Below are positions 33,758 through 57,253 of a stretch of 61,843 bases of DNA, one piece after another. Within the stretch, counting starts at the first letter, position 1, and each line of letters starts with the position of its first letter. A model generated the notes under the pieces. The model was given only the letters and a program-made list of their open reading frames with translations. It was not told the DNA's origin and ran no database searches. The position numbers and the translations under genes were made by a program. Source of the stretch: a virus (lineage: Duplodnaviria; Caudoviricetes); IMG/VR virus record IMGVR_UViG_3300042568_000857, positions 1 to 61,843 of that record. One strand, written 5' to 3'.

Positions 33758-34006
33758 TTACTTCGTAGCCGTCTCAGCCACCGGGACCGGGGCTGGTGTC
33801 AGGACGAGCTTGCCAGCCTCCCTTGCCAAGGCGGCGTCCTCCGGGCTGATCTTGCCGGTGCGCTCGGCGTAGGCCAAGGCCACGTCGCCGATGCGGGCAA
33901 GGCGGGCCTCGTCAATCTGGCCGCCTGACTGGCAGGAGGGCAGGCAGAGGGCGACGGCAAAGAATGGCAGGTGAAGGCCGAGGGTGATGAGGAAGGGAGT
34001 TTTCAT
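33758..34006 (-). CDS. Lipoprotein
   Basis: MKTPFLITLGLHLPFFAVALCLPSC signal peptide with lipobox-like Cys. Confidence 0.6.
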   Translation of the reverse strand: MKTPFLITLGLHLPFFAVALCLPSCQSGGQIDEARLARIGDVALAYAERTGKISPEDAALAREAGKLVLTPAPVPVAETATK

Positions 34007-34436
34007 AGTGGTGGATCGGTTGAGTGGTATCTTGCAGAGGCCCAAGCCTAGCCCAACTTTGCCCGGCTGGCAAGGCCGGGCTGGCCTTTCTTGGGCGGGC
34101 AGCCAAGGCAGGCAGGCGCGAGGGCTCTCTCTGCCAATGCTCCCCCTCCCCTCATGGACATGAGAGAAAGAAAGGAGTGCTTGCCGGATTTGTTTCACAT
34201 CGCCCCGGCATATAAGCCCCCAGCGAAGTCCCCCGTGTTTGCCGCTACGGGGAGCACTGGCTTCTCAGGGCCTGCATGTCCAGCGGTGCCCGGCCTCACG
34301 GCTAGGGCTGCCCGGCTTGGCTGGCTTTGGGCAAGGAACAGACACAAACAAGCCGACCTCTAGCGGAAGGTCGGCTTGCTGTGGTGATCCTTGGAAGGAG
34401 TCGCTTTAGAAGGGCGATACTCCCGCTAGAAAGCAC

Positions 34437-34856
34437 CTATTTGGTAATGCCAAGATTCTCCAAGACCGGCGGGCGGTCAAGGACCAGTCTGTACTTTTTT
34501 GAAGGGTTCGTCACCACGCCCCCATCCGCCAGCCACTCAGCCGAGCCACTGGCAGGCAGCCCGGCGGCCTTGCGGAGCTGGCGGATGCGCTCACGGCAGA
34601 CGCTGTGCTTGGTGGCAAGGTAGGTGTCTTGCAATCGCCAGTCCAAGGTTGATGCGTCGAGCTTATTTTTCCACTCCCAACGAGTGCCCGGCGGCGTGCC
34701 CCGAGGCCTGACTGGCAGACCTTTGCCGCGCATCCATTTTAGCACAGTCGTTACCGCTACCCCGCACTCTTTCGCGATGTGCAGGGCGGGCCTAGCCGTA
34801 TCAATGCCCGCCGGAGCCTGCCAAAGCCTGCCTTTCTTGCCTCCGAAGTGGCTCAT
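34437..34856 (-). CDS. HTH DNA-binding protein
   Basis: IAKECGVAVTTVLKWMR and LATKHSVCRERIRQLR HTH-like motifs. Confidence 0.6.
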   Translation of the reverse strand: MSHFGGKKGRLWQAPAGIDTARPALHIAKECGVAVTTVLKWMRGKGLPVRPRGTPPGTRWEWKNKLDASTLDWRLQDTYLATKHSVCRERIRQLRKAAGLPASGSAEWLADGGVVTNPSKKYRLVLDRPPVLENLGITK

Positions 34857-34948
34857 AGCTGGGCATCCTTGGCTGGGGTGAGGCAGGCGGCTTGGAGGAT
34901 GGCGTCGGGGATCTGTCGGGTGTCGGGTGTATTGCTCATGGCGGGCCA

Positions 34949-34977
34949 AGTATAGGCCGGGCTGGGCCGAAAGGCAA
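34949..34977 (-). promoter_or_regulatory. Sigma70-like promoter
   Basis: TTGCCT-N17-TATACT. Confidence 0.65.
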
Positions 34978-35060
34978 GCTGAACAGCGCCAACTGATACT
35001 TTCGTTTTATATCAGCCCGTGTTTTCTGGCACTAAGCCTCTAAAATGCGCTCTTTTAGTA

Positions 35061-35702
35061 TCAGCCAGTCAGCCTGCCAGCCTCCAAACGCCGGGCAATG
35101 GGCGAGCCGGGTTTTATGAGAGCTTGCATCAAGTCCCTCACCGTTGGCGTTCCCGTGCCTGCCTCCTGCCCTGGCAAGGCAGGCTTGGCCTCTAGGCCGG
35201 TCTGCTTGGCGATGGCCTGGAGGGTGGCTAGGGGGCAGGGCTTCTCGACTTCGATGGTCGTTTTAGGCCCGGCGTCGGTCATGGTTTCGGTGACTTTATA
35301 CTTCTTACAAAACCTTGATTCTGCGCTGATTGCGGCCAGCGGCGTCTCAAACATATCCTTCATATTGCCCACCAGCCAAGCCGCGGTCACGCCATGGGCC
35401 TGCCCAGCGGCCTGGGCAGCGGCTTCTTTGAGGGCGGCGATCTCGGCGGCCATGTCGGCATCCCAGCGGGTGCCTTGGCTCGCGCAGCCGTCGCGGGTCG
35501 TCTCTGGCCTGACCATGCGGTAGGCCTCGGCGGCGGGCGTGCCGGTGGCTCTGAGGGCGCAGTACTGGGCCTTCTCGCCGGGCGTGGCCCATGCCTGCCT
35601 GCGTGGTATGACCTCGGCCTGGGCTGGCCTGCTAGGCGAGGCTGGGCGGCGTTTGGCCTTGGCTTTCTTGGCTGCGGGCTTGGGCTTTGTGTCGGATTTC
35701 AT
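35061..35702 (-). CDS. terS: Terminase small subunit (putative)
   Basis: YCALRATG..AAEAYR HTH, EIAALK coil, IEVEK..LATLQAIAKQTG; lies upstream of terL. Confidence 0.65.
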   Translation of the reverse strand: MKSDTKPKPAAKKAKAKRRPASPSRPAQAEVIPRRQAWATPGEKAQYCALRATGTPAAEAYRMVRPETTRDGCASQGTRWDADMAAEIAALKEAAAQAAGQAHGVTAAWLVGNMKDMFETPLAAISAESRFCKKYKVTETMTDAGPKTTIEVEKPCPLATLQAIAKQTGLEAKPALPGQEAGTGTPTVRDLMQALIKPGSPIARRLEAGRLTG

Positions 35703-35851
35703 GTATTGTTTGTAGTTAATGCCCATTTACGCAGAGGAAAAGTGATCTTTGCGCAAAAAGTCGTTGATATATTTTAATTCGTGTGCGTTTATACTGGTGT
35801 CAGTGGGCGCGTTTGCCTGCTACAAAACTAAAGACATCCGACAAAAACACT

Positions 35852-36193
35852 ATGACAGCAATCTTTGACATGATCTCCCCAGCCCGCGTGGCTGGCTTTG
35901 TGCGGGCCAATGGTCTGCTTGGCTTCGAGGCCCGGCAGTTTGGGCCGCGTGACTTCCGCGTCGTGGAGCACCGCTTGGACTCCATGGGGCGCACTGAAAC
36001 GCCCTATCAGGCAGGCGGCCAAGCCGAGGCCTGCCAAGCTGCCCGGCGGTGGGCGCAGATTACGGACACGGAGGTCTTGGCTATCGGGGCGGCCCGGTGC
36101 CGTATGGCGGAGCTGGCCGAGGCAATCCGGGCCATGCGGCCTGCCAAGCCTGTGGTGCAGGCGGAACTTTGCTTTGGGGAGGTGGTGGCGTGA
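35852..36193 (+). CDS. Hypothetical early protein
   Basis: First ORF after AT-rich divergent region (TATACT ~35790) and GACATCC motif. Confidence 0.6.
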   Translation: MTAIFDMISPARVAGFVRANGLLGFEARQFGPRDFRVVEHRLDSMGRTETPYQAGGQAEACQAARRWAQITDTEVLAIGAARCRMAELAEAIRAMRPAKPVVQAELCFGEVVA

Positions 36194-36480
36194 AATATCC
36201 TCGCACACATGCGGCTTTGGTGCCTGTCTCCAGCCTCAACGCTTTTTCCGAGGTCGTCCCGGCGGCCTTTGCCCAAGGCCTTGAGGGCGCGCTTGCCAAG
36301 CTTGCCCGCCTGGACTGGCGGCCTGTGGCGGCTGGGCTGCCCACGGAGGAGGATGCGGACGAGTTTGGTGATGTTGAGTGGTCGGATGGCCACGACATCT
36401 GGCAGGCTGGCTGGGCGCGCTCACCTCACCAGCCTACCCACTGGCGGCCTATCAGTCTTCCTCCCCTTATCAAGCCATGA
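36190..36480 (+). CDS. Hypothetical protein (DUF551-like)
   Basis: WRPVAAGLP...PTHWRPI motifs; GTG start overlaps upstream stop. Confidence 0.6.
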   Translation: MKYPRTHAALVPVSSLNAFSEVVPAAFAQGLEGALAKLARLDWRPVAAGLPTEEDADEFGDVEWSDGHDIWQAGWARSPHQPTHWRPISLPPLIKP

Positions 36481-36641
36481 ACCGCCCTCTGTCCTCCATC
36501 ACCCCTCCCCCCACATGGCCCGCCCGCCTAGCTGAGCCTGCCCGGCCTAGCTTGGCGGCCTTGTGCCTTGACGTGGCCTGCCTGCTGGTGGGGCTGGCCC
36601 TATTCCTGTTCGTCGTTTACAATCTCAAAATGCACTTATGA
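36477..36641 (+). CDS. Small membrane protein
   Basis: Single hydrophobic segment; coupled overlaps. Confidence 0.5.
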   Translation: MNRPLSSITPPPTWPARLAEPARPSLAALCLDVACLLVGLALFLFVVYNLKMHL

Positions 36642-36817
36642 AAAATCCCCTCCTCCCCGACCCCGACACCCATCCCATGCTCTACGCCCGTGAATACCTC
36701 CGCCAGCGCCCTCTCTACGACGGCCTAGCCTTCCTGGCCTGCCTGTTCGTGGGCGTGCCGGTGACCGGGCTGGCGTTGCTCTGGATCTGCCGTTTTGTCT
36801 TTGCCTTCACGCCATGA
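36638..36817 (+). CDS. Small membrane protein (59 aa)
   Basis: MKNPLLPDP...GLAFLACLFVGVPVTGLALLWICRFVFAFTP*; coupled overlaps. Confidence 0.5.
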   Translation: MKNPLLPDPDTHPMLYAREYLRQRPLYDGLAFLACLFVGVPVTGLALLWICRFVFAFTP

Positions 36818-37389
36818 GCCTTCCCCCCGAAGTCATCGACCAAATGGCCGACGATCCCTCCTACCCCCGCCCCCACAAGCCCAAGCCGGGCCGCCCCCGT
36901 GGCAGGCCTCCGGGCTCTAGGCCGAAGAAGGGCGGAGGCTCGAAGAGGGCTTTTCTCAACTCGGCGCTTTACGTCACGCAGTCAGGGGAGCGTGTGGCGG
37001 TGCTCCGCCTGCTCATCACTTTGCCTGACACCACGGCAGCCAAGGCGGACGGGCTGGCCGCCCAGCTTGGCACGTCCGTTAGTGGGCTGATTTGCGCGCT
37101 GATTGATGAATTGCCCGAACCCAAGAGTGTGCCGCCTGCGCCTAGCCTTGTTCCGCCTGAACCGGCTGGCGGGGCGGGCCAGTGGCGGCCTCTTTGGCTG
37201 CCTAGCGCCCTGGCTGGCAAGTTGGCCCGGCACTTGGCGCGGGTGGGGTGGGATTTGCACACTTTTGTCGGGCACATGGTCGCCGCCATGCCTGATCCAG
37301 ATCTGATGGCGAAGGCCAAGCCGCTGTTTGCGGGGTGGGAGGATGAAAAGCCTAGCCCTGCACCGCCTGCACCAGCATCCGGGCAATAA
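36814..37389 (+). CDS. AT-hook plus ribbon-helix-helix-like DNA-binding protein
   Basis: KPGRPRGRPPGSRPK AT-hook; LLITLPDTTAAKADGLAAQLGTSVSGLI RHH-like. Confidence 0.6.
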   Translation: MSLPPEVIDQMADDPSYPRPHKPKPGRPRGRPPGSRPKKGGGSKRAFLNSALYVTQSGERVAVLRLLITLPDTTAAKADGLAAQLGTSVSGLICALIDELPEPKSVPPAPSLVPPEPAGGAGQWRPLWLPSALAGKLARHLARVGWDLHTFVGHMVAAMPDPDLMAKAKPLFAGWEDEKPSPAPPAPASGQ

Positions 37390-37640
37390 CGTCGTCCAGC
37401 ATCACCTCACGGGCAGCCGCTATGTGTTTGCACCAGCGAACCGGCGGCTGCTCGCCTTTTTCGCGGGCCGGGCCGATGCGGTAGCTCCACTGAGGGCAGG
37501 CGCATTGGCCGTGGCCGTTGTAGGCGAGCAGGTCCACCATGTACTTGCCTGCTTGGCTCTGGCTGGCGACGAGATAGCGGCCCACGGCGTCGGCGGGCTC
37601 TATTAGCCAAGTGTCCGGCTCAGGCGTGGACAATGCCGCC
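37352..37640 (-). CDS. SWIM zinc-finger protein (start uncertain)
   Basis: YMVDL..GQCACPQW..WCKHI. Confidence 0.65.
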
Positions 37641-38123
37641 GGGCTTGAGTCGGATCTTGAAGATGGAGCCTTGGGCGCGGGCGGCGTTGTAGGCCCATGT
37701 TTCGAGGGCTGAGTGGTCTGCATGGTCGTAGTGGTCGGGGTGAACGTAGATCTCCCAATGGCTGCCTTCAGCCTCGCCTGCCAGTCTGTAGGCCTCTGGG
37801 CCGTAGCGGCTGTCAAGCCAGCCCACGGCTAGCTCGCGCACCTCGGGCATGGGGGAGATTGGCGGCGTGTTGAGGTCGTGGCGGGCTGTGCTTGGGACCT
37901 GCAAGCCCCAGCCGAACGGGCGGAGGAGCTGGCGTAAGGCTGCCACCATGGCACCGCCTTTGCCGATGATTGAGCCCATGTTTCGGGCGGAGGCTAGCAG
38001 GATAATTTCGCGGTCGTTAACCTTGATCGCTATGCCCGTGGGGTCGTGGGGGATGAGGGGCAGAACCAGCGCATGTATGAAGTCGTGGGCTGTGCTGGCG
38101 TCTCTGTCGTTGTCTGGTGTCAT
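37620..38123 (-). CDS. KH-domain RNA-binding protein (KhpA-like)
   Basis: NMGSIIGKGGAMVAALRQLL GxxG loop. Confidence 0.75.
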   Translation of the reverse strand: MTPDNDRDASTAHDFIHALVLPLIPHDPTGIAIKVNDREIILLASARNMGSIIGKGGAMVAALRQLLRPFGWGLQVPSTARHDLNTPPISPMPEVRELAVGWLDSRYGPEAYRLAGEAEGSHWEIYVHPDHYDHADHSALETWAYNAARAQGSIFKIRLKPGGIVHA

Positions 38124-38193
38124 TTACTCCACTTACGCGACAAGGCCGAGCCCGTCAAGGCCCGGCCTGTGCTTGGCGGCTGGCAGGCGGCGA

Positions 38194-38574
38194 TCAGAAC
38201 GGAATTTCTGAATCGTCGCCATCATCCGGCGGCGGTGGCGCATACTGCACCGCCCGACTAGGCTTGGCAGCCTGGGCTGGCCTTCCGTAGCCTGCCTGCT
38301 GGGCTTGGGCTGGCCTTTGGGCGGGAGCTTGGCGGGCGGCTGGGGCTTGTTGGCCTGTGGAGTGCATCCACTTGCCGTTGCCGATGATGACAGGCTTGGT
38401 GCCTTGGTCGCGTAGTTCCTTGGAGGGCGACTGCTTGACGACGTGACTGTTGCCGTATGGGTCTTCGGCGTCGTTCTCGTAGATTACCAAGTCGAGGTAG
38501 GTGCCCTTTTGGCCTTTAAAGAGCCAGTCTTTGACAATTTTCTGAACGTCGAGTTTAAGTATGATGTGTGACAT
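38194..38574 (-). CDS. SSB-like protein
   Basis: Compact N-domain, Q/A/P linker, acidic DDGDDSEIPF tail. Confidence 0.65.
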   Translation of the reverse strand: MSHIILKLDVQKIVKDWLFKGQKGTYLDLVIYENDAEDPYGNSHVVKQSPSKELRDQGTKPVIIGNGKWMHSTGQQAPAARQAPAQRPAQAQQAGYGRPAQAAKPSRAVQYAPPPPDDGDDSEIPF

Positions 38575-38638
38575 AGAAGCGTAAAAGCTGGATTAGTTGA
38601 GGCGGTAACTATACCTTGGATAAACTGCTGTAAAGCCA

Positions 38639-39184
38639 TTAGATGTGACTCCACGCTTTACGGTTGATGATTTTGCCAATGATCGGAAAATCAACACCAA
38701 ACTGCGCAGCTAGCCTTTTTAGGGTGGTTCCACCAGCGGCATAAAGCGCCCGAATCTCAATGACTTTGGTGGCGGTGAGTTTGGCGTTACCGTTGACTTC
38801 GCCAGCGGCGGGTTTATTTCGGCCCTTGCTAGCTCTGTCGCTAACATTGTCCGCATGAGCGCCTAGAAAATAATGATCAGGGCGGCAGCATGTTGGAACG
38901 TCGCAACGATGGCAGACACATGTACCGTGATACCCCTCCCCTCGTGGGATTGGGCCGTTAGTTATTGTCCAAGCTACCCGATGAGTTGTTAGCATCTTGC
39001 CGCCAACACTTATCTGACCGTAGCCTCTACTGTTTTTGCCAGCTTTCCAAATCCAGCACGGCGTTTCCATGTGGGGCATCGTGGGACCGTTTTTATCAAT
39101 CTTGGACCAGAATCTCGCGATGTCTTTTGCGCTGAGGTTGACGGGCGGCGGGGGCGCGGTGAGAGTAGAATCAGAGCTTTGCAT
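38639..39184 (-). CDS. HNH homing endonuclease copy 3
   Basis: [44 protein letters not shown]; C-terminal HTH. Confidence 0.92.
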   Translation of the reverse strand: MQSSDSTLTAPPPPVNLSAKDIARFWSKIDKNGPTMPHMETPCWIWKAGKNSRGYGQISVGGKMLTTHRVAWTITNGPIPRGEGYHGTCVCHRCDVPTCCRPDHYFLGAHADNVSDRASKGRNKPAAGEVNGNAKLTATKVIEIRALYAAGGTTLKRLAAQFGVDFPIIGKIINRKAWSHI

Positions 39185-39200
39185 GGTAAGGTCATGTGGA

Positions 39201-39273
39201 GTTTAGCGCCGCTGCGGAGTTACTAGCTCCAAGGCGGCGCGCTCATTATTACTCAACGCCGAAGGTTTTGCAA
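39201..39273 (-). promoter_or_regulatory. HNH-3 leader: promoter, hairpin, CTAAAC
   Basis: TTGCAA-N16-TAATAATG; stem GCGCCGC..GGAG/CTCC..GCGGCGC (39206-39240). Confidence 0.7.
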
Positions 39274-39636
39274 AGCATTCAGCAATTCTTCGTGCTTCCT
39301 GTCAGAATCCCACCGCCGATGCAGCGCCTCATCCTCCCGCCTCGTAGCCTCCACGGCGGCCAGCCCTGCCTGCCTGCCCTGGCTGGCGGCGGCCTCAATA
39401 ACGAGGTAGAGCGCGGATGAGATGGCTTTTTTCTCTGCGTCGGTGGCGGCCTTGGCTAGGGCGAAGCGCAAACGGATAACGTCGGGGCGCTGCCGGGCCT
39501 TGGCGATGGCCTCGGCCTCGTAGGCGGCTACGGTCATGCCCTCGGTGGGGCGGCGGGTGTCTTGGGCATGGGCGGGCAGGGCGGCGAAGAGGCGGAGCAG
39601 GGCGAAGGTCAGGAAAGCGTAGGCGAGCGTTTTCAT
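39253..39636 (-). CDS. Secreted/membrane hypothetical protein
   Basis: Signal peptide ending AHA; own promoter TTGCCA-N17-TAAAAT (39646-39674). Confidence 0.65.
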   Translation of the reverse strand: MKTLAYAFLTFALLRLFAALPAHAQDTRRPTEGMTVAAYEAEAIAKARQRPDVIRLRFALAKAATDAEKKAISSALYLVIEAAASQGRQAGLAAVEATRREDEALHRRWDSDRKHEELLNALQNLRR

Positions 39637-39676
39637 TGTGGGGGCATTTTATCAGGATGGCGGGCAGATGGCAAGC

Positions 39677-39733
39677 ACCGAACTGCCGCTGAACCGAACC
39701 GGCTATGGCCGGTCGGTTAGCTTTTTGTTCGGC
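39677..39733 (+). other. Integron attC-like site
   Basis: ACCGAAC-tgcc-GCTGAACC-GAACCGGCTATGGCCGGTC-GGTTAGC-ttttt-GTTCGGC: R''/L''/L'/R' layout with two extrahelical bases. Confidence 0.55.
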
Positions 39734-41224
39734 TTAAAGTTTCCCCACAATACCCGCCATTTCAGATTCCGTCCAGCCCCGGCCATGCAGGCTTGGCCGC
39801 CGCCGGGCGCAAGTGATGGTGAGACTGTCCCGGCTTCTCGTCACGGCCACATAGAACAGGCGCAGCATCTCTGCCGTGTCAGGCCAGCTAGCCTGCTCGG
39901 CTCCGGCAATCAAAACGTGGTCCCATTCGAGGCCCTTGGCACCGTGAACCGTGCCGATGTAGAGGCCATTGAAGTCGTAGCTAGCCTGTGCCTCCGCCTG
40001 GGCCAGGGCCTCGGCCATGGCTGGCAGCAGGGCCTCGGGCTGGCTAGAGCCGCAAGCCTCGGTGAAGTGGCGGACGTAGGGCAGGGCGTTGTGGTGGTTG
40101 TGCCATGTCTCACCGGGATTCTGGATGGCTGCCATAGCCTGCCGGATCATGGCTGGGTCCAGGGCCAGGGCCGGGCAGGGCGGCAAAGCGTCGGCCAGGG
40201 CCAGCCGCAAACGCTCGGCTAGGGCGTTGTGGCGGCAGAGGATGGCGCGGGAGCCTGTTGGGTGGGAGGCTAGCCATTCGCGGATGTGGGCAAACTCGGC
40301 GGCCTCGGTGCCGAAGTTACACACACCAACTGGCGTGTGGGCTATCTCGGGGGAGACAAACATTGTGGAGACGTTGCGAGGGTCGCGGACGTATTTCATG
40401 GCAATGGCTCCGGTTTGGCCTGCCGTGAGCCTGTTGGCGGCGGCAATGATGGGCGGCAGGCTCCGGTAGTTGTCGACAAGTATCAATTGGCACCATTCAG
40501 GCGAGGCGGCTAAGTGTCTAAAATAATCCGAACTAGCACCACGGAAGCTGAAAATCGACTGCATTTCATCGCCTACTACGGTCTTGGACTTGGCCTCAAT
40601 CTGCTCAAGCAAAGCAAAGTCTCCGGCCGCCGTGTCCTGGAACTCGTCCCAAAACAGCGCATCCAGATCCCCAAGGCTACCCGGCAAATGGTGGACGGCC
40701 TCGCCAAGCAAAAGATCCATCGAAGCCTGCCCGGCTGCTACCATGGCCCGGCGGACGGCTCTGGCGGGGGCGTAGGCACGGTTGGAGATGCAAGGCACGC
40801 CTGTATCCGTAGCCTGCCCGGCGGCCAGGGTGGCGGCCACGTCGCGGATGGAGACGGATTTATCTAGGCGGAGGCGGGTAAGCTCGGCCTTGATCATAGC
40901 GGCCTGGGTGTCCTCGTCTATAATGACGGGGCGGCGGCCCTGCCATGTCGGCCACTTGTGGGCCTCAGCCAGTGCTAAGGCGTGCAGCGTGCCAACATGC
41001 CGGAGGCCAGTAATGCCAAGGGCTGCCAGCCTGTCGGCTAAGATGCGGCCAGCTTGAACCGTGAAGCTGATGGCGACGACTTTGGATGGGTCGGCCCCGT
41101 TGGCGATGGCGGCGGCGATACGGCGGACGAGGACGAAACTCTTGCCGCTGCCTGCCCCGGCGCGAAGCAGGAGGCGGGGGGCTTGGCTGGCGATGGCGGC
41201 GGCCTGTTCTGGGGATGGTTGCAT
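39734..41224 (-). CDS. UvrD/Rep-family SF1 helicase
   Basis: AGAGSGKS, WDEFQD, VGDEMQSIFSFRGA, NYRS, TVHGAKGLEW, RLFYVAVTR. Confidence 0.92.
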   Translation of the reverse strand: MQPSPEQAAAIASQAPRLLLRAGAGSGKSFVLVRRIAAAIANGADPSKVVAISFTVQAGRILADRLAALGITGLRHVGTLHALALAEAHKWPTWQGRRPVIIDEDTQAAMIKAELTRLRLDKSVSIRDVAATLAAGQATDTGVPCISNRAYAPARAVRRAMVAAGQASMDLLLGEAVHHLPGSLGDLDALFWDEFQDTAAGDFALLEQIEAKSKTVVGDEMQSIFSFRGASSDYFRHLAASPEWCQLILVDNYRSLPPIIAAANRLTAGQTGAIAMKYVRDPRNVSTMFVSPEIAHTPVGVCNFGTEAAEFAHIREWLASHPTGSRAILCRHNALAERLRLALADALPPCPALALDPAMIRQAMAAIQNPGETWHNHHNALPYVRHFTEACGSSQPEALLPAMAEALAQAEAQASYDFNGLYIGTVHGAKGLEWDHVLIAGAEQASWPDTAEMLRLFYVAVTRSRDSLTITCARRRPSLHGRGWTESEMAGIVGKL

Positions 41225-41290
41225 AAGCGTGGTGTCGGATGTCTTGCGCGTTGAAGTATGCGCGCCCCACTATTAACACTATTTCGACTG

Positions 41291-43309
41291 CTAGACAAGA
41301 TGAATTGCGTTTACGCCTTTCGGCACGCCGTCGATGTCGCGGTTGTCCATGACAATCACCTGATCCACCAGCCCAGCCTCCACGGCGGCGGCCAGATTCG
41401 CCAAGACGGCAGGCTTGCGGCCTGGATCAATAACGCCAAATTCGTCCACAATGACGAGCTTAAAGCCTTGATGATTGGCAGCCAAGGCGGCCTGAATGGC
41501 GGCGGTGGCAATGCGCTTGTCCGAGCCGCTGAAGGCATCGAAAGTCACCCATGACTGATCCTCGTATCGGCCAAGGCAAAGGTCGTGGACAGTCAACGGG
41601 GCGGCGAACAAGCCAGCCGTGAAGGTCTGGCACACATCCAGCACGCCGCGCAAGGCATGGTCCATGATGCCCTTCACCCCAGCATCCCAAGCCGTCCTAG
41701 CCGTTTTAAAGGCGGTTTCATCTGTTTCGAGCTGGGCCAGCCGTTCCTCAGCCTGCCTGCGGGTGGCCTGCCGGGCCTCGGCTTGGGCCTGGGCGGCTTG
41801 GCTGGCGGCGGCGGTGGCGAGGGCACCACGGGCGGCGTCAAGTTGCTCGGAGAGTTCGGTGATGAGTTCAGCGATGCGGTCAGCGCGTAGGCTTGCCACA
41901 AGGCGGCCTTCGTCGGCCTTGGCGTAGGCGTCCCAAGCCCTAGCTCGGCGGGCCTCGGCGGTGAGGGCGTCGGCGGACTCGGTGAGGTCGGCGAGGGCGT
42001 CTTGCAGGCCTTGGATGTCGGCCTCGGTGATGCCTGCGCCTTGGACGGTTTCGTGAAGCCAGTGATTATCCACGGCCTGTTCGGCGCGGAGCACGGCTTC
42101 GTAGGCGCGGGTGACGGCGGCGGCTTGGCGAATAAGGCTGTGAAGAGTTTGGAGGCGGTCGGCATTTTGCTTCATCGCTTCCTCCCATCCTGCAACGTCT
42201 GACTCTTCGGCTGCTTCGCGGTTCCAATGCACTGCCAAAGCTCCGCAACAAGGGCAAGTGCCTTTGCCGGTAAGCTCGTCGTTGTTGGCGGCGTTGAGCT
42301 TGGTTTGCAGGCGGTCAGACTGAATCAGTAACTCGTTAATGTCAGCCTTGAACTTTGCTTCGTCCACTGGCTCCCACCCGTCCGCCACGATCTGATAGGC
42401 GGCCTGGGCCTCTGCCAGCTTGGCCTCAAGCCTGCCGTGTTCGGCCTGCCAGCGGTCCCATACCTGCCGGTCCACCTGGGCCTGGGCAAGGTCGGCCTGG
42501 GCGGCGCGCAGGCGGGTTTGCACGTCGGCGAGCTGGGCCTCAAATGCCTCTGCCGTGCCGTTGGGGCGCTCGCTTGGGGGCTGCACTGGGGCCGGGCGGC
42601 TGGCGATGGCGTTGGCCTCGCCGGTCAGGGTGGCGATCTCGCGCTCTAGGCGGGAGACGTTGGCGCGGAGTTCGGAGATGGGCGGGCCGCTGGGGGCGGG
42701 TGCGGAGGTGTCGAGGATCTCCATGCCTGCCAGGGTGCCGCGCATATCCTTCATGCTGGCGGTGTAGCCGGTGGCGGTGACCTTGGCGATGTCTTCGACA
42801 CTGGCTAGCCACTCCTGCACATCGTCAAAGGCTTTGAGTGTGCCTGTGAGCTTTTCCAACCCTGACTCGGCCAGGAGGGCGCGGAGCTTGGCTGGCACGT
42901 CGTCGCCGCAGGCTCCCAAGATCATGCCTGCCCTGACTTTGGGCGAGGCTGCCAAGAACGGCTCAAGGTCGAGCATGACGGGTGGCAGGAGGTCGGCGGG
43001 GGCCGGGCTTTTGGACTCGCCCTTTACGGACTTGCCGGAGCGGGTGAGGCTGCGGTCGTAAATGGTGCCGCCAATGTCGAGGCTGGCCCCCATACGCAGG
43101 CTAGAGCCGAGGGCGTCCATGACGCCGCCGTTGGTCTTGGGCAGGCCGGGCACCTTGCCGGAGAGGACAAAGGACAAGGCGTTGGCGATTGTTGTCTTCC
43201 CGGCACCGTTGGCACCGATAACTAGGTTGACGCCGGAGGCGAAGTTGTGGGCGCGGGAGCGGCCAGCAAAAGAGTCGAGGGAGATGGAGGAGATGTATGT
43301 ATTTTTCAT
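41291..43309 (-). CDS. Rad50/SbcC-like SMC ATPase
   Basis: GANGAGKT, coiled coils with CPCC zinc hook, FSGSD signature, IVDEFG. Confidence 0.88.
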   Translation of the reverse strand: MKNTYISSISLDSFAGRSRAHNFASGVNLVIGANGAGKTTIANALSFVLSGKVPGLPKTNGGVMDALGSSLRMGASLDIGGTIYDRSLTRSGKSVKGESKSPAPADLLPPVMLDLEPFLAASPKVRAGMILGACGDDVPAKLRALLAESGLEKLTGTLKAFDDVQEWLASVEDIAKVTATGYTASMKDMRGTLAGMEILDTSAPAPSGPPISELRANVSRLEREIATLTGEANAIASRPAPVQPPSERPNGTAEAFEAQLADVQTRLRAAQADLAQAQVDRQVWDRWQAEHGRLEAKLAEAQAAYQIVADGWEPVDEAKFKADINELLIQSDRLQTKLNAANNDELTGKGTCPCCGALAVHWNREAAEESDVAGWEEAMKQNADRLQTLHSLIRQAAAVTRAYEAVLRAEQAVDNHWLHETVQGAGITEADIQGLQDALADLTESADALTAEARRARAWDAYAKADEGRLVASLRADRIAELITELSEQLDAARGALATAAASQAAQAQAEARQATRRQAEERLAQLETDETAFKTARTAWDAGVKGIMDHALRGVLDVCQTFTAGLFAAPLTVHDLCLGRYEDQSWVTFDAFSGSDKRIATAAIQAALAANHQGFKLVIVDEFGVIDPGRKPAVLANLAAAVEAGLVDQVIVMDNRDIDGVPKGVNAIHLV

Positions 43310-43321
43310 GGTGGTGTGGTG

Positions 43322-43564
43322 TTAGAAGTCAATATCAGCATATAGATGCTCGTCGGTAGCCGCTGGAAGTAGAATGCGGTGAACTCGGGAACAGTTGCCC
43401 CTGCGTTCGGTTACTTGTTTGGCGAAAGTCGCGGCGTCCTTTCGGTTCATTGAAATGAACACGGTGCTAGGACGACGATAGGCCAACGTCCAGATTTGGC
43501 TTCCTGGGGGGCGCTCAAAACAGACGTAGTATGCTTTGAATGCGGACTCATCTTTGAGGATCAT
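43322..43564 (-). CDS. Hypothetical protein
   Basis: ORF coupled to the XRE gene. Confidence 0.55.
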   Translation of the reverse strand: MILKDESAFKAYYVCFERPPGSQIWTLAYRRPSTVFISMNRKDAATFAKQVTERRGNCSRVHRILLPAATDEHLYADIDF

Positions 43565-43773
43565 AGGCGTGGCAGTTTGGTGCGTTTCTGGTGGAGTTTG
43601 CGAAGCAGTTGTTGCAAGCCGTAGCCTTGAATCATTGCGCGCTCTTGTTCCCAATTCTCCAACGTGCGTTTGTTAATGCCCAGGACTTGAGCTGCATCTC
43701 GCTGGCTAAACTCGTTATCGGAGCGCCAAGCGCGCAACAAATCGGCAAATTCTTTACTGGTGGGTGGAGTCAT
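43561..43773 (-). CDS. XRE-family HTH regulator
   Basis: FSQRDAAQVLGINKRTLENWEQ. Confidence 0.85.
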   Translation of the reverse strand: MTPPTSKEFADLLRAWRSDNEFSQRDAAQVLGINKRTLENWEQERAMIQGYGLQQLLRKLHQKRTKLPRL

Positions 43774-44183
43774 GGCTTGATGAAGGTTAGAACGGCTGGT
43801 CCTGAATAAGCCGGGCAGCCCTCGGCCTTGGCCGTGAACTTGGCCTTGCCACGCCTGACGACGGCATGGCCCTGCAAGACGTGCCTTTTGCCCCGCTTGC
43901 CGGGCTTGTGGCCAGGCAGGCTAAGCCAAGTGGCCGAGTCTTGGCGCTTGGCCTCGATCTGCCCGGCGGCCACAAGGGCGCGGAGGCGGGCGTAGATGTT
44001 CGGCGAGTGGGCGGGCCTGCCTGCTTCCTTGCGGCGGGCTACCATGGCGGCCACCAACTCGGCCTTGGTCATCTGCCCGCACACGGCCAGCACGGCCAAG
44101 GCTAACTGGCTGAGGCTGGACTGGCGGCGGGCAGGCTTGGCCGGGCGTGGGCTGGCGGTGGGGATGAGGTGGAAGTCATTCAT
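43770..44183 (-). CDS. Winged-helix DNA-binding protein
   Basis: GQMTKAELV..NIYARLRALVAAGQI. Confidence 0.55.
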   Translation of the reverse strand: MNDFHLIPTASPRPAKPARRQSSLSQLALAVLAVCGQMTKAELVAAMVARRKEAGRPAHSPNIYARLRALVAAGQIEAKRQDSATWLSLPGHKPGKRGKRHVLQGHAVVRRGKAKFTAKAEGCPAYSGPAVLTFIKP

Positions 44184-44185
44184 GG

Positions 44186-45010
44186 CTAGTCTTGGGGCCA
44201 AGGTTCCTCAGCGGCGGCGGCTTCCTCGGCTGGATAGTCGGGCAGGGCGGCGGTGACGACGCTAGGGGCGATGTCGCCAGATTCGAGCGCCTTGCAGACA
44301 TGCAGGATTTCGGAGGCGCACTGGTGGACATCCTGCCAGAACGTCCGGTTGCGCACCTCGTCGGGAATCGTGGAGGCTGCCACGCCTTTGATGAGCGCCG
44401 TGAACGCCTCCTTGACCGCCATGCCTACCGTAGCGCCATGCGGCCCGGCGGGCACAGGCGGCCTGCTAGGCTGGGCAGGCGGCTGCTGCGGAGGGCGGGC
44501 GGCTTGGGGTGGCGGGCCTGACTGGCGGGGAGGTGGGTTCAGTAGGCGTTGCTGGGCCTGCTGCGGGTTGTTGTCGTACACGATGTCCGTCCTGTGGGCT
44601 GGCGGGCCTTGGCGGGCTGGCTGGGCTGGCTGGGCTGGCTGGGCTGGGGCGGCGGGGACGCCTTCGAGCCATTCAATCACGGTGCGGGAGCGGCCATGCT
44701 GGTCGGTTCCTTTTGCATCAAGCCTTTTTTTTCCATTGTAGGAAGAAACGCTGAGACCTGTCAGGTCGCCGCGCCCATTTTTGGTTGCAGAGATGCGGAA
44801 CCATGGGCCTACCCAATCGGCTGTAAGGGGCGGATCAAAATCCACGAAACGAATACCCACCTTGGTACCGGCAGCGTCCTCGGCATAGGCGGATTGTATG
44901 GTGCCTTGCCCAAAAGGCTTTGGTGGGTCAATCTTCAAGAGACGGGCCTCGACCATCTCCAAATCTGTAGAATCTGGAATGTGCTCCAGTGTTGCGAAGG
45001 GTGTAATCAT
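44186..45010 (-). CDS. Hypothetical, possible OB-fold ssDNA-binding protein
   Basis: Beta-rich N-domain, P/Q linker with PAQ repeats, acidic C-terminus. Confidence 0.55.
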   Translation of the reverse strand: MITPFATLEHIPDSTDLEMVEARLLKIDPPKPFGQGTIQSAYAEDAAGTKVGIRFVDFDPPLTADWVGPWFRISATKNGRGDLTGLSVSSYNGKKRLDAKGTDQHGRSRTVIEWLEGVPAAPAQPAQPAQPARQGPPAHRTDIVYDNNPQQAQQRLLNPPPRQSGPPPQAARPPQQPPAQPSRPPVPAGPHGATVGMAVKEAFTALIKGVAASTIPDEVRNRTFWQDVHQCASEILHVCKALESGDIAPSVVTAALPDYPAEEAAAAEEPWPQD

Positions 45011-45097
45011 AGGATGTCTGGCCGATGTTTTGCGGCTGACACCAACTCTAACGCATACCGTTTAGTTTGCAAATGGTATCATCGAGCTAATTCGTAT

Positions 45098-45167
45098 TTG
45101 AGGATTTGTGATGACGTGTTATTATGAACACGCCGCCGGAAGCTAGACACTTCACGACGGCGCTAAC
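45098..45167 (+). promoter_or_regulatory. HNH-4 leader: promoter, hairpin, CTAAC
   Basis: TTGAGG-N16-TATTATG; stem CGCCG..GAAG/CTTC..CGGCG (45131-45162); CTAAC. Confidence 0.7.
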
Positions 45168-45185
45168 TAAGCCCATAAAAACACT

Positions 45186-45761
45186 ATGAACGAAGCTACA
45201 CCAACCGTGCCACTGGCGCGCACACAAATCAACTTTACTCCCGCACAAGAGGCGAGATTTTGGGCTAAAATCAATAAAGATGGCCCGACAATGCCGCACA
45301 TGGAAAGCCCTTGCTGGGTATGGACGGCGTGCAAAAATAAAGCAGGATATGGCAGCGTAAAAGTGGTGGATAAAACACAACTAGCCCACCGCGTCGCATG
45401 GATGCTTAATCATGCTGAAATTACCAATATTTTAGTCTGCCACCGCTGCGACAATCCGGCTTGTTGTCGCATTGATCACCTTTTTCTCGGTACGGCTGCT
45501 GATAATGCTCGCGATAGGGCCGCCAAGGGTCGTAACAACTCGGCTAGCGGCGACAAGCACGGTTCGCGGACAAAACGCGAGAGCAGACCAAGAGGAGAGG
45601 CTAACCATTTTGCAAAATTAACCGCTACTACAGTCATTGAAATTCGCTCGCTGTATGCCGCTGGAGGCATTACTTTAACGGCGCTTGCCGTGCGGTTTGG
45701 TGTTGGTGTATCCACAATTCACGCCATCGTTCGCCGCAAAATCTGGCAGCACATCCCATGA
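45186..45761 (+). CDS. HNH homing endonuclease copy 4
   Basis: Same family signature; [22 protein letters not shown]. Confidence 0.92.
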   Translation: MNEATPTVPLARTQINFTPAQEARFWAKINKDGPTMPHMESPCWVWTACKNKAGYGSVKVVDKTQLAHRVAWMLNHAEITNILVCHRCDNPACCRIDHLFLGTAADNARDRAAKGRNNSASGDKHGSRTKRESRPRGEANHFAKLTATTVIEIRSLYAAGGITLTALAVRFGVGVSTIHAIVRRKIWQHIP

Positions 45762-46123
45762 CCAGCCTGACCATCACCGTCCCCATTCCCTCCCCAAAGC
45801 TCGCCCACAACGGGCGCGTCCACTTCCGGCAGCGGGCCGCCCTCGTCAAAGCCTGCCGGGCCTCGTCCTGCCTCCTGGCAAAAGCGGCCTTGGCTGGCAA
45901 GCCTGCGCCGGGCTGGGGGAAAGCGGCGGTGAAGGTGGTGGCGTATTTTCCGACACTGAGCTTCCCAGATCCGATGAACTTGCTCGATAGGTGTAAGGCC
46001 GTGCTGGATGGCTTCGAGGATGCCAGAATCATCCTGGATGACAAAGACCTTTGGCCGGAAAGGCCGGAGATGCACAAAGACAAGGACCGCCCGCGACTGG
46101 AAGTTACAATCACGCCGGAGTAA
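45758..46123 (+). CDS. rusA: RusA-like Holliday junction resolvase
   Basis: DPMNLLDRCKAVLDGFEDARIILDDK..PRLEVTI. Confidence 0.75.
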   Translation: MTSLTITVPIPSPKLAHNGRVHFRQRAALVKACRASSCLLAKAALAGKPAPGWGKAAVKVVAYFPTLSFPDPMNLLDRCKAVLDGFEDARIILDDKDLWPERPEMHKDKDRPRLEVTITPE

Positions 46124-46132
46124 TCATACCAT

Positions 46133-46161
46133 TTGCGAGCCTTGAGGTTTGCCGCTATAAT
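46133..46161 (+). promoter_or_regulatory. Sigma70-like promoter
   Basis: TTGCGA-N17-TATAAT. Confidence 0.7.
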
Positions 46162-46184
46162 TGCATTCCAGACATCCCGACACC

Positions 46185-46433
46185 ATGACAATACCCCACC
46201 CATACCGGCTACGCGCCTATCACAACCCAAGAAACGCGGATGAGTCGCTTGTCCCGGCAGGCTGGCGGATGCTTTATGCTGACGAGTTTCCTTTACCAGA
46301 CGGCCACCGCATTCCTTGCCGTTTGTTTGTTAAAGGCATCTACGACAACGCTCCAGATCCTCACTTTGGAGCCAATAAGGGGCGCACTGGTTCCCTTTGG
46401 TGCATAACCTACATTATCCCCGTCACGCCATGA
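46185..46433 (+). CDS. Hypothetical protein
   Basis: ATG follows promoter and GACATCC motif. Confidence 0.55.
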   Translation: MTIPHPYRLRAYHNPRNADESLVPAGWRMLYADEFPLPDGHRIPCRLFVKGIYDNAPDPHFGANKGRTGSLWCITYIIPVTP

Positions 46434-46594
46434 CCGCACTCCCCCTGAAAACCTGCCCGGCCTGCCTTGGCCGAGGTCAGCGGCTCGCCAACTCAGGCAC
46501 AGGCCTTTTGAAGCCGTGCCCAGCTAAGGGCTGTACGGCCAAGGCTAAAGCGGCGGAGATCAAACACAACGGCCATGAAACGAAGCTACCTTAA
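46430..46594 (+). CDS. Small Zn-finger protein
   Basis: CPACLGRG..CPAKGC. Confidence 0.5.
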   Translation: MTALPLKTCPACLGRGQRLANSGTGLLKPCPAKGCTAKAKAAEIKHNGHETKLP

Positions 46595-46922
46595 ACGCAA
46601 AGCCCGGCTGGCCCCGGCAAGCGCCAAGCAGGCCGATAGGCTGGCGCGTTATCACGCCATGGTGGACGGCTGGCAGGGCAGGCGGGTTTGTGCCAAGTGC
46701 GGTGCCAAGGCTGGCCTAGAGCCTCACCATCCATGGGGCAGGGGGCGGGAGAACCTGTTTCGAGTGATCTTGCTTTGCCACACCTGCCATGAAGGATGCC
46801 ACGCCTCGCCGGATGTGGCCTATAGGCTTGGCTGGCTCCAGCCTGAGTACCGGGGCGTCATCCGCCCACCAAACTTTCCCGTCCCGTGGAAACTAGAACA
46901 ACTGATAACCGACATCCCATGA
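46575..46922 (+). CDS. Zn-binding HNH-like nuclease, distinct from the five-member family
   Basis: CAKC..HH..GRG..LCHTCH..CH. Confidence 0.7.
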   Translation: MKRSYLKRKARLAPASAKQADRLARYHAMVDGWQGRRVCAKCGAKAGLEPHHPWGRGRENLFRVILLCHTCHEGCHASPDVAYRLGWLQPEYRGVIRPPNFPVPWKLEQLITDIP

Positions 46923-47287
46923 AAAAGACACCCCACAAGAAGCCTTACCTTCACGCCCCAGCCTTTGCCCGCAAGGAGATCGCCCGCCTCAAAGCCTTGG
47001 GGATGCGATTTGCCTACAATCCTTGGGATGATGTGAAGTCGGTGAGCCACATCACGCCCCGCGCCTACTGCATCGCCAAGCCTGCTAGCCAGTTTGCGGT
47101 TTTTGCGGTGCCGTCATGTGACCGTGAGCCGCAGTTAGTTGGCCTTTCAAACGCCGACAGGACTACAGTTCAACATGAGTCATGCCAAAGGGTGAAAGAG
47201 GGCGACTGGTGTTCTCTTGCCTACGTCTCCACCGACTCCAGCGGCCAGCCCGTCGTCCTTGAAATCCTCCAGCCCACCAAGCCATGA
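46919..47287 (+). CDS. Hypothetical protein
   Basis: Coupled ORF, GACATCCC-ATG start. Confidence 0.55.
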   Translation: MKKTPHKKPYLHAPAFARKEIARLKALGMRFAYNPWDDVKSVSHITPRAYCIAKPASQFAVFAVPSCDREPQLVGLSNADRTTVQHESCQRVKEGDWCSLAYVSTDSSGQPVVLEILQPTKP

Positions 47288-47601
47288 CTGCCACCCTACT
47301 CATCGAGGCCATCACCGCCGCCAAACAGGCCGAGGCCTCCGCCCGCCAGAACCGCCTAGCCGCCGTCCGGGCTTTTGCCGGGCACATCAAGGGCAAGATG
47401 GCCCGCCTCAAACTGGACCGGGGCACGCTTCGCCGCCGCCTTGGCTGGCCTGATAGCCGAATCGGCAATTTTTTACACTTGGATTACTGCCTCACGCCCG
47501 AATGGATGGCCCAGCTTGCCGAGGCCGTGGGGCCAATGACCGCAGCCGAGCGCCGGGCGGCCAAGCGCCAGCCTAAACGCACCAAAGCACTCAACTCCTA
47601 A
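47284..47601 (+). CDS. Hypothetical HTH-like protein
   Basis: LDRGTLRRRLGWPDSRIGNFL. Confidence 0.55.
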   Translation: MTATLLIEAITAAKQAEASARQNRLAAVRAFAGHIKGKMARLKLDRGTLRRRLGWPDSRIGNFLHLDYCLTPEWMAQLAEAVGPMTAAERRAAKRQPKRTKALNS

Positions 47602-47607
47602 ACACCC

Positions 47608-48039
47608 ATGAGCGATACACCGCGCACAAACGAATTTAAACGCACTGTCGGAGTCCCTTGGTGGGAGTTTGCGGGCCAACTCGAACGCGAGCTAGCCGCC
47701 AGCCAAGCCGGGCAGGCCGAGCTACTGGCCCGGCTGGAAGAACGCACGCAGTCACATCTCCACGCTTCGGCCAGAGATGTGCAAACGATCCAACGGCAGG
47801 CGGTGGAGCTTGCCCATTGGCGGGCCGAGTTTGTGCGAATGGCAGCCATGCGCGAGCATAATGGCAATATGGCTGGTATGTGGCAGGCATTGGCAGAGGG
47901 GCTGGCTAAGGCGGCAACCGAATATATGGATAAATGCCCTGCGGACGCTGACGAAACGCCTTCATTCTACGCGGCTGGCCTCGGCTTGAGCCAAGCCCTC
48001 GCCGCCCAAGAGGCCGCCAAATCCGCAAACCATGACTAA
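47608..48039 (+). CDS. Hypothetical coiled-coil protein
   Basis: MSDTPRT..FAGQLEREL N-terminus common in phage accessory proteins. Confidence 0.6.
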   Translation: MSDTPRTNEFKRTVGVPWWEFAGQLERELAASQAGQAELLARLEERTQSHLHASARDVQTIQRQAVELAHWRAEFVRMAAMREHNGNMAGMWQALAEGLAKAATEYMDKCPADADETPSFYAAGLGLSQALAAQEAAKSANHD

Positions 48040-56281: not shown

Positions 56282-56326
56282 TGTCCCATGTTACTCGCTC
56301 GCCCCTGTACGGCAAGAGCAATTCGC

Positions 56327-56394
56327 TTGCACAGATTGTAGCGTTGGATAGAATGTCGCGCCGATTAGAGGTCGAAACTCCGCACGGCGCTAAC
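56327..56394 (+). promoter_or_regulatory. HNH-5 leader: promoter, hairpin, CTAAC
   Basis: TTGCAC-N16-TAGAATG; stem GCGCCG..GAG/CTC..CGGCGC (56358-56390); TAAC. Confidence 0.7.
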
Positions 56395-56410
56395 TCCAAT
56401 TCATCATACC

Positions 56411-57022
56411 ATGAACGAAGCTACGACCACCGTGCTACCAGCACGCAGCGAAATCAAGCTCACTCCATCTCAAGAGGCGAGTTTTTGGGCGAAAGTGAAC
56501 AAAGACGGCCCAACGATGCCGCACATGGAAAGCCCGTGCTGGGTCTGGACATCCGACACAATAAAAAACGGTTATGGCCGTATGCGTGTAGGTCGCAAGA
56601 ATTTTCTTGCCCACCGTATCGCATGGACGCTGGCTAATGGCCCTATACCGCATGATGGCAGCCACCACGGGATTTGTGTATGCCATAGATGTGATCGTCG
56701 TAATTGCACAAATCCTGCGCATTTCTTCCTTGGCACTAACGCTGACAACATACGCGATATGTTCGCTAAAAAGCGCAATGGTAGCAGCATAAAGCCAGAA
56801 AGCAGGCCACGCGGAGACAACCATCATTTTCGGACAAAACCTGAATGCGTTCGACGTGGTGAGTTACATGGTCGCGCTAAATTTAGTGCTAACCTAGTAT
56901 TGGATATACGAGGTGCATACTCGGCGGGCAACATTTCGCAAAAGCAACTGGCCGCACAATTTGGAATGTCACGCTCTTTGATTAGTCTTATAGTCCACCG
57001 CAAAATCTGGCGGCACATCTGA
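56411..57022 (+). CDS. HNH homing endonuclease copy 5 (antisense within structural operon)
   Basis: Same family signature; VCHRCDRRNCTNPAH..N. Confidence 0.92.
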   Translation: MNEATTTVLPARSEIKLTPSQEASFWAKVNKDGPTMPHMESPCWVWTSDTIKNGYGRMRVGRKNFLAHRIAWTLANGPIPHDGSHHGICVCHRCDRRNCTNPAHFFLGTNADNIRDMFAKKRNGSSIKPESRPRGDNHHFRTKPECVRRGELHGRAKFSANLVLDIRGAYSAGNISQKQLAAQFGMSRSLISLIVHRKIWRHI

Positions 57023-57052
57023 CCCTGCCCGCCAGCCGTGGGCAAGCCCTTT

Positions 57053-57253
57053 TCAGCCGTCTGCCGTGGCCTGGGCGGCGGCCTGCCTGCCCTCGTCATA
57101 AACTGCCTTCATGTGGGCGGCAATAAGTAGCATTTCAATCCACTCGCGTGAGCCTTTTTGTAATTGCTCTGGCATCCTATTGAGGTCGTAGAGCAGGCTA
57201 AGTGTGGCGGGATTACTGTTAATCCAGGCTAGTGCTTCTTGTTCGTTTTTCAT
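57053..57253 (-). CDS. Hypothetical protein
   Basis: ORF from MKNEQEAL. Confidence 0.55.
   Translation of the reverse strand: MKNEQEALAWINSNPATLSLLYDLNRMPEQLQKGSREWIEMLLIAAHMKAVYDEGRQAAAQATADG

Follow-up and report, generated by a model that had tools for sequence, protein, structure and literature searches.

A covarying stem-loop leader precedes five HNH endonuclease genes in a phage genome: a candidate expression module of mobile cassettes

Introduction

How can a free-standing homing endonuclease gene be expressed wherever it is inserted, as it needs to be, without wrecking its neighbors? To our knowledge, the solution is known in detail only for T4. The question is raised here by positions 45098 to 45761 of IMG/VR virus record IMGVR_UViG_3300042568_000857, where an HNH endonuclease gene follows a compact leader made of a promoter, a hairpin, and a CTAAC box. 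The window analyzed is the whole of this phage assembly, a single contig of 61,843 bp with a G+C (GC) content of 60.1%, and it carries five such genes, termed here H1 to H5, of which H4 is the one at 45098 to 45761. An earlier note, made from the DNA letters alone, had proposed that the five genes and their leaders are copies of one mobile unit, and had suggested an operator, a translational control element, or an end signal for mobilization as the role of the hairpin.

We find that the leader is restricted to one HNH clade, that its stems covary, and that the cassette as a whole is present or absent among related phages. The reading that we favor, with moderate confidence, is that the leader is a cis-acting expression module that acts in the messenger RNA (mRNA) of portable homing endonuclease cassettes, its 5' stem-loop serving to shield and insulate.

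Results

The anatomy of the cassette is exemplified by H4, which lies on the + strand. Its promoter (45098 to 45125) consists of a -35 box TTGAGG, a 16-nucleotide (nt) spacer, and a TG-extended -10 box TATTAT, and is followed by the hairpin (45131 to 45162), in which CGCCG pairs with CGGCG in the outer stem and GAAG with CTTC in the inner stem around a 7-nt loop, with a folding energy of -14.5 kcal/mol and a score of 69.1 bits in the covariance model described below. A CTAAC box then opens a 23-nt, G-poor leader without a Shine-Dalgarno sequence (45163 to 45185), and the HNH_3 endonuclease gene of 191 amino acids follows (45186 to 45761), its stop codon overlapping the ATG of a RusA-like gene at 45758 (ATGA). 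At H5, also on the + strand, the promoter TTGCAC-16-TAGAAT, hairpin (56358 to 56390), TAAC box, and leader occupy 56327 to 56410 (55.9 bits), and the gene of 203 amino acids (56411 to 57022) runs antisense to the surrounding structural genes. The other three cassettes are on the - strand. For H2, promoter TTGATT-16-TATGCA, hairpin (28857 to 28888), CTAAC box, and leader span 28834 to 28922 (69.9 bits), ahead of a gene of 181 amino acids at 28288 to 28833; for H3, promoter TTGCAA-17-AATAAT, hairpin (39206 to 39240), TAAAC box, and leader span 39185 to 39273 (61.4 bits), ahead of a gene of the same length at 38639 to 39184. For H1, promoter TTGACC-16-AATAAT, hairpin (441 to 472), CTAAC box, and leader lie at 418 to 504 (53.9 bits), and the gene is split over the two ends of the contig, its 5' part at 1 to 417 and its 3' part, with the putative helix-turn-helix region and the stop codon, at 61690 to 61843, past a 44-nt gap.

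The five upstream regions align and share one order, consisting of TTGnnn, a 16- to 17-nt spacer, an AT-rich -10 box that ends in ATG, 4 to 6 nt, a hairpin closed by a CGCC/GGCG clamp, (C)TAA(A)C, and a start codon 20 to 24 nt further on, so that the identical layout described in the earlier note holds for all five genes. The same is true of its statement that the copies are intergenic, occur in both orientations, and are lower in GC than their flanks: open reading frame (ORF) maps place them between genes, three on the - and two on the + strand, at a GC of 0.49 to 0.53 compared with 0.58 to 0.63 for the flanks, with a third-codon-position GC (GC3) of 0.45 to 0.58.

The hairpin is the minimum-energy fold in every copy, at -14.5 to -24.6 kcal/mol for the five window copies, with z values of -2.0 to -5.7 relative to shuffled sequences. 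The inner stems read GAAG/CTTC, CCTG/CAGG, GGAG/CTCC, GAG/CTC, and CTC/GAG, exactly as first reported, and the covariation that these had suggested is found throughout a set of 25 distinct, though related, leaders, on which all counts of geometry and covariation given here are based. Double-sided changes occur in 11 of the 12 stem pairs, and standard pairs fill 82.5% of the cells, against 27 to 50% when the partners are slid by 1 to 3 columns. The covariation score is 0.438, compared with at most 0.125 in the controls, and for four of five covariation measures the observed values are attained in 0 of 500 shuffles. Outer stems have been wholly rewritten in some members, as GAGCC/GGCTC, GCATCGCC/GGCGATGC, GCGTCC/GGACGC, GCGACC/GGTCGC, or GCCGT/ACGGC, while loop sequences are not conserved and arm spacing and bulges vary. 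Structure is kept, rather than sequence.

The leader is also clearly specific in its placement. A covariance model built from 15 leaders and run unfiltered over the whole window scores the five leaders at 53.9 to 69.9 bits; the runner-up reaches 12.4 bits and comes from the opposite strand of the H3 hairpin. A regular expression for the hairpin plus TAA[AC] returns the five sites and one weak match in a coding region at 22955, with a mean of 2.1 matches in shuffled sequence. Two sets of loci with related HNH genes were searched, 80 viral ones, fetched by means of the HNH protein, and 80 metagenomic ones. The viral loci yield 27 matches, of which all 23 full-length ones are at HNH genes and the other four are partial opposite-strand hairpin matches; a copy not used in training was found at 4642 to 4707 of locus L004, upstream of a second HNH paralog. 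In the metagenome loci, none of which contributed to training, all ten plus-strand matches end at an HNH ATG (nine full-length and one cut by the end of the locus; three are weak, with E values of 0.15 to 0.5), and there are additionally two partial opposite-strand matches. Five whole related viral records (234.7 kb) contain eight matches, all eight at HNH leaders. The co-occurrence search proposed in the earlier note therefore places every full-length match at an HNH gene, and across the window, the 160 loci, and the five records it is only the HNH clade, and not unrelated genes, that carries the motif. A scan of IMG/VR with a sequence-only pattern gives 12 matches, four with both hairpin and HNH gene and eight with neither.

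No leader family is found when the whole window is compared with Rfam at the gathering score, a transfer RNA (tRNA) being the only match, and the H4 and H2 leaders, searched with E values up to 10, give chance-level matches alone, of at most 17 bits; no Rfam family matches the leader. It is likewise undescribed in the main texts of the literature covered; supplementary figure S1 of the report on promoter-early stem-loops discussed below possibly bears on terminator strength.

Beyond the clade, the wider HNH family tends only loosely toward an upstream hairpin. The regions upstream of 97 distinct HNH relatives have a mean z of -1.14, compared with -0.17 for 996 controls from the same loci, and 31% of the former but 7% of the latter fall below -2; once the leader clade is removed, 78 regions remain, with a z of -0.69 and 17% below -2. 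Some of these structured non-clade regions are probably terminators of upstream genes. A second, refined model (R2) applied to 99 more distant loci detects zero further full leaders, and only partial opposite-strand hairpin matches upstream of HNH genes in L050, L076, and L080. The defined motif, therefore, belongs to one clade.

The geometry of promoter and leader is similarly constrained. The -35 box is TTGnnn in 24 of the 25 leaders and TTTACT in the remaining one, the spacer is 16 to 17 nt, and 4 to 7 nt (mode 5) separate the end of the -10 box from the first paired column. The mean promoter match is 8.4 out of 12, compared with 5.3 at random positions, and a score of at least 8 is reached by 84% of leaders and by 2.75% of random positions. 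The second base of the stem, which lies at the usual distance for +1, is G in 23 of 25. The stem ends mostly 20 to 25 nt upstream of the ATG, and the intervening leader contains 5% G. As even a weak Shine-Dalgarno-like word is present at only 10 of 44 other ORF starts in this phage, the lack of such a sequence reflects the host and not the cassette. The hairpin has no trailing U-tract, which the terminator-like sites of the phage do have.

Two other readings of the leader were tried and rejected. A resemblance of GCTCTAAC to boxA was dropped, since the motif lies half inside the stem and the 190-amino-acid gene has no evident need of antitermination. An N-terminal extension of the protein from the ATG in the -10 box does not hold either, because the frame differs among copies (62 versus 63 nt) and the stems covary.

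Comparison with related phages, as the earlier note had recommended, reveals presence/absence polymorphism, and the unit of promoter, hairpin, leader, and HNH gene behaves as the self-contained mobile block that the note had postulated. For H5, eight of the 11 loci fetched by way of a neighboring gene were compared (L181 to L183 were left out as duplicates of L180); the block, at about 56285 to 57022, is present in one and absent from seven, and the empty alleles have 43 to 122 nt in place of window positions 56283 to 57259. On its 5' side the H5 insert reaches to about 45 nt before the -35 box; it closes with the stop codon, directly next to a hairpin that the empty site has too. H3 is absent from L013, where a BLAST gap spans window positions 38596 to 39249 and 15 nt stand instead (by eye, the inserted block is at about 38608 to 39245), and the contig of L013 has an extra HNH cassette at window positions 37347 to 37483, where the window has none. 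Another cassette takes the place of 58128 to 58411 in L004. H4 is lacking in the more distant phage L020, in which a plain TTGACG-17-TAGAGT promoter directly precedes the RusA gene. Contigs from four DNA metagenome runs, compared with window positions 28000 to 47900, break around the HNH paralogs and give zero joints across any cassette.

Further differences between the window and related contigs were seen. Next to H5, the empty-site relatives likewise lack about 205 nt that include a small ORF (about 57057 to 57259, - strand), and L186 has a different short insert at this position. Upstream of the leader at the H2 site, L012 has about 719 nt (2165 to 2883) that are missing in the window between 28976 and 28950. 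Outside the HNH cassettes, window positions 43296 to 43800 hold an ORF of 110 amino acids (GC3 0.49) without a family match; one metagenome contig omits 43297 to 43799, joining 43296 to 43800, and the matching region of L020, a distant relative, contains an HNH cassette. This may be another variable slot.

The five genes are free-standing HNH (His-Me finger) homing endonuclease cassettes, with homing itself predicted. They sit between genes rather than in an intron or intein, as seen from the ORF maps and the insert edges, and all match Pfam HNH_3 (PF13392) above its cut-off, with E values of 1.7e-10 to 8.6e-8. The common N-terminal signature from which the earlier note had grouped them is present in all five, and the H, N, C, and D columns of the HNH alignment are invariant. 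An AF2 model of the protein (predicted local distance difference test [pLDDT] score 78.5) has weak top Foldseek matches to I-PpoI and I-HmuI (E values of 0.016 to 0.11). A variable RGDxH..PE repeat links the nuclease to a putative C-terminal helix-turn-helix, for which all Pfam matches are under the cut-off; the model has three helices at residues 147 to 182, where Foldseek aligns helix-turn-helix proteins. The protein has relatives in 1,309 cultured-phage records, none of which reaches 60% identity; most are annotated as HNH endonuclease, and the closest of the 25 matches listed is at 41%. A search of solved structures with the HNH protein sequence found none, and bacterial genomes gave 17 distant HNH relatives, all without the leader, and no clue to the host. 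A sixth small HNH-like ORF, at 46575 to 46922 (+), is unrelated (phrog_740, E value of 3.9e-7) and lacks the leader.

The claim that H1 runs from 417 across the junction to 61690 stands in that the gene does run from start to end in this way, but the two contig ends are not adjacent. As written in the window, the frame is broken at the junction. In the viral contig L008, which is 99 to 100% identical, 44 nt lie between the two ends and H1 is intact, at 203 amino acids; the nucleotides missing at window position 1/61843 fall inside the H1 repeat linker. H1 is therefore a real gene, the frame break is an assembly gap, and the ends of the contig do not form a genuine circular junction. A one-base circularization error as the cause of the break is rejected on the same grounds.

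The phage itself is present in 24 runs labeled lake water metagenome, and a DNA near-identity search of the phage-record collection returned zero near-identical records. PHROG matches are scarce; they include an endolysin, a major head protein, a tail chaperone, helicases, and RusA. A single ORF of 6,038 amino acids (10059 to 28175, - strand) takes up 29% of the genome and looks like a phage "polyvalent protein," as Pfam detects InPase, ART-PolyVal, and methyltransferase domains in it. ARAGORN and Rfam (48.1 bits) agree on a tRNA-Met (CAT) at 24728 to 24802, within this ORF and in its orientation; it could be a real tRNA embedded there or coding sequence that resembles one.

No such hairpin accompanies the remaining good sigma-70-like promoters of the window. 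They lie at 33551, 34977, 39674, and 61671 (all -), where an ATG about 10 nt past the -10 box suggests leaderless mRNAs, and at 46133 (+), where this distance is about 24 nt. Separately, the motif CCGACACC occurs in seven copies (33453, 34919, 41231, and 26061 on the - strand and 36663, 46177, and 51429 on the + strand), against 2.2 expected, and a count of seven was reached in 0 of 100 shuffles. Three copies stand directly or a few nucleotides before start codons, two fall within the opening codons of the genes at 33551 and 34977 that are candidates for leaderless expression, and related variants are found at 4105 and 61671. The motif may be linked to initiation or be an N-terminal motif of TPDT type.

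Discussion

When the anatomy, covariation, and distribution are placed into the context of gene expression, a coherent picture may be drawn. Each cassette, inserted in either orientation between two phage genes, would bring a host-type (sigma-70-like) promoter, a leader, and a nuclease gene. The predicted transcription start is no more than about 2 nt from the hairpin base, and if so, a blunt stem-loop would form the very 5' end of the transcript. Next would come a conserved CUAAC box, single-stranded, and then, up to the AUG, a G-depleted, unstructured segment about as long as one ribosome footprint. The likeliest role of the stem-loop would be to shield the 5' end against 5'-end-dependent decay; it may also insulate the ribosome landing pad from neighboring sequence at the insertion site, in which case the nuclease would be expressed alike at any such site. 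We infer action in RNA rather than in DNA. The stem is tightly coupled to the -10 box and stands one ribosome footprint before the AUG, which points to a role at the 5' end of the mRNA, as does the fact that pairing is conserved rather than sequence.

Several observations weigh against this interpretation. None of the runs that contain the phage is recorded as RNA, and the transcription start is a prediction; were it exactly 7 nt past the -10 box, the outermost covarying pair, at about -1, would fall outside the RNA. The asymmetry between G-U and A-C pairs is indecisive between RNA and DNA, as folds read by eye include U-G pairs in the GGAG-type stems and C-A mismatches in the H4 and L012 types. 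The CTAAC box exceeds the stems in conservation, which a pure stability role does not explain. The pair counts come from an alignment that had been fitted to the model and whose sequences are related, so the shuffle control is a generous one.

The main rival, which we regard as rather unlikely, is a module of the kind known as promoter-early stem-loops (PeSLs), in which the stem-loop would attenuate incoming transcription, the promoter would restart it, and the module would be a homologous landing pad for exchange of nuclease ORFs. Known PeSLs, as described in the main text of the report, combine a sigma-70-like promoter with a stem-loop that is sometimes just past the -10 box, and act as terminators and shuffling sites (PMC2839356). 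Three of the five cassettes here are co-oriented with their upstream genes, and at orthologous sites promoter and hairpin are better kept than the gene, as though the ORF had been replaced behind them. Between H2 and L012, identity falls from 95% upstream to 67% over codons 1 to 50 (150 nt) and is near baseline beyond; between H4 and L002, it is 91% upstream, then 81% and 60%; and between H5 and L004, 82%, then 73% and 59%, where unrelated sequence gives about 55 to 65% under these settings. The middle part of L012 is nearest to L016, at 76%. However, the five leaders of the window are mutually only 63 to 74% alike, with a baseline near 60%, and would thus be poor substrates for homologous exchange. 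The hairpin lacks the U-tract that marks the terminator-like sites of this phage, its position past the -10 box of the same cassette means that the cassette's transcript would be affected as well, and the module precedes HNH genes only and not diverse ORFans.

A more speculative view, to which we assign a small probability, is that the leader is an undescribed class of cis-regulatory RNA, an "expression plug" that would be read by the nuclease, through its conserved N-terminal region, or by a host factor, and that would double as a conserved docking sequence where one nuclease ORF is replaced by another at a given locus. If this is true, the element is part of the mobility mechanism and not of expression only.

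It is unlikely that the hairpin is a protein-binding operator, with the nuclease or another phage factor binding either the inverted repeat in DNA over +1 or the RNA hairpin and its CUAAC tail and so repressing the gene. T4 gp43 and gp32, which repress their own mRNAs, and I-TevI, which represses its own promoter, would be the models. For the T4 intron endonucleases, autorepression has been documented (PMC2988022). The element does overlap the predicted start site, and its CGCC/GGCG clamp and CTAAC box are more conserved than bare structure requires. Against this, arm spacing, bulges, and loops are variable, and outer stems have been wholly replaced in some members (for example, GAGCC/GGCTC, GCGTCC/GGACGC, and GCCGT/ACGGC). 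An operator specific to each paralog, one form of the role suggested in the earlier note, is unlikely because hairpins that are identical or 95% identical accompany different putative C-terminal helix-turn-helix domains (H4 versus L002 and H2 versus L012).

It is very improbable that the hairpin is functionless baggage, alike through paralog ancestry alone. In its favor, the known distinct leaders number only about 25 and are related in sequence, but both arms of the stem have been rewritten without loss of pairing or of the distances to the -10 box and ATG, and neutral drift would have destroyed the pairing. Least probable of all is the role of end signal for mobilization, another of the earlier suggestions, in which the nuclease would recognize an extruded hairpin plus CTAAC as a nick site in the manner of HUH transposases with subterminal hairpins; HNH enzymes are able to nick DNA, I-HmuI is among the fold matches, and the hairpin is near the 5' side of the present/absent block, but the 5' edge lies 25 to 45 nt upstream of the -35 box, and so away from the hairpin, in two of the three readable insertions, no conserved 3'-end element was found after the cassette stop codons, no target duplication pattern is common to the insertion sites examined, and the fixed spacing to promoter and ATG points to expression rather than transposition.

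An expression module in mRNA, conserved in at least 25 distinct cassettes of uncultivated viral and metagenomic contigs, thus remains the reading that we favor. Since it can be described by a covariance model, is clearly specific, and matches nothing in Rfam, the leader is a clean candidate for a new RNA-motif family, and it would represent a compact natural promoter-plus-insulator part. The replacement of ORFs behind a retained leader offers a way to test how targeting domains are swapped between endonuclease genes.

Comparison with known systems

Among the closest analogues are the PeSLs, mobile regulatory cassettes of the T4-type phages RB49 and phi1 (Arbiol et al. 2010, PMC2839356). According to the main text of that report, PeSLs likewise place, immediately ahead of a small accessory gene, a sigma-70-like promoter and a stable stem-loop, are linked to insertions, deletions, and replacements between close relatives, and include one subclass with the stem-loop downstream of the -10 box. 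As described there, however, a genome has about 50 PeSLs, which stand before many ORFans unrelated to one another, have a Shine-Dalgarno sequence, and are terminators (PMC2839356), whereas the present leader is confined to one HNH clade, has neither U-tract nor Shine-Dalgarno sequence, and possesses a conserved CTAAC box and fixed spacing.

Regulatory hairpins are also reported upstream of I-TevI, I-TevII, I-TevIII, segB, and Aeh1 mobE in a review (PMC2988022), and these share with our leader an RNA hairpin ahead of a phage homing endonuclease gene, positioned relative to a dedicated promoter. The same source describes, for seg43(25) of Aeromonas phage 25, a non-sequestering hairpin whose function is likewise not established (PMC2988022); it is upstream of the ribosome site without covering it, as is the case here. 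The T4-type hairpins differ in that they sequester the ribosome-binding site and a late promoter starts inside them, and the T-even genes are mostly GIY-YIG or of other HNH lineages. The present hairpin covers neither start codon nor ribosome-binding site, its stem ends 20 to 25 nt before the AUG, and no promoter starts inside it, the -10 box being upstream of the whole stem by 4 to 7 nt. The comparison with I-TevI drawn in the earlier note is apt insofar as a hairpin lies upstream of an endonuclease gene but is otherwise loose, as this hairpin stands well before the ATG and sequesters nothing.

A structured RNA located 5' of an HNH nuclease gene resembles HEARO, the omega RNA of IscB, which guides a RuvC-HNH protein, is about 300 nt long, and is included in Rfam. 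The present element differs in being a single hairpin of about 32 nt, and no Rfam family matches it, HEARO included. With respect to the role proposed here, 5'-terminal stem-loops were reportedly found by Emory, Bouvet, and Belasco in 1992 to stabilize mRNA, as in ompA and papA. The likeness is a stable hairpin predicted at or beside the first transcribed nucleotide, the 5' end of our transcript being a prediction from promoter geometry. The leader of T7 phi10 has a 5' stem-loop followed by an unstructured translational enhancer, and the same succession is predicted here, with a promoter directly followed by a 5' stem-loop, a single-stranded, enhancer-like stretch, and the start codon, although T7 employs its own RNA polymerase and a strong Shine-Dalgarno sequence and the two are unrelated in sequence. 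In comparison with T4, this lineage may offer a different solution to the expression of a free-standing endonuclease, with a self-promoted transcript, a covarying 5' stem-loop, and a landing pad without a Shine-Dalgarno sequence. The leader module is new in its detail and of a known general kind.

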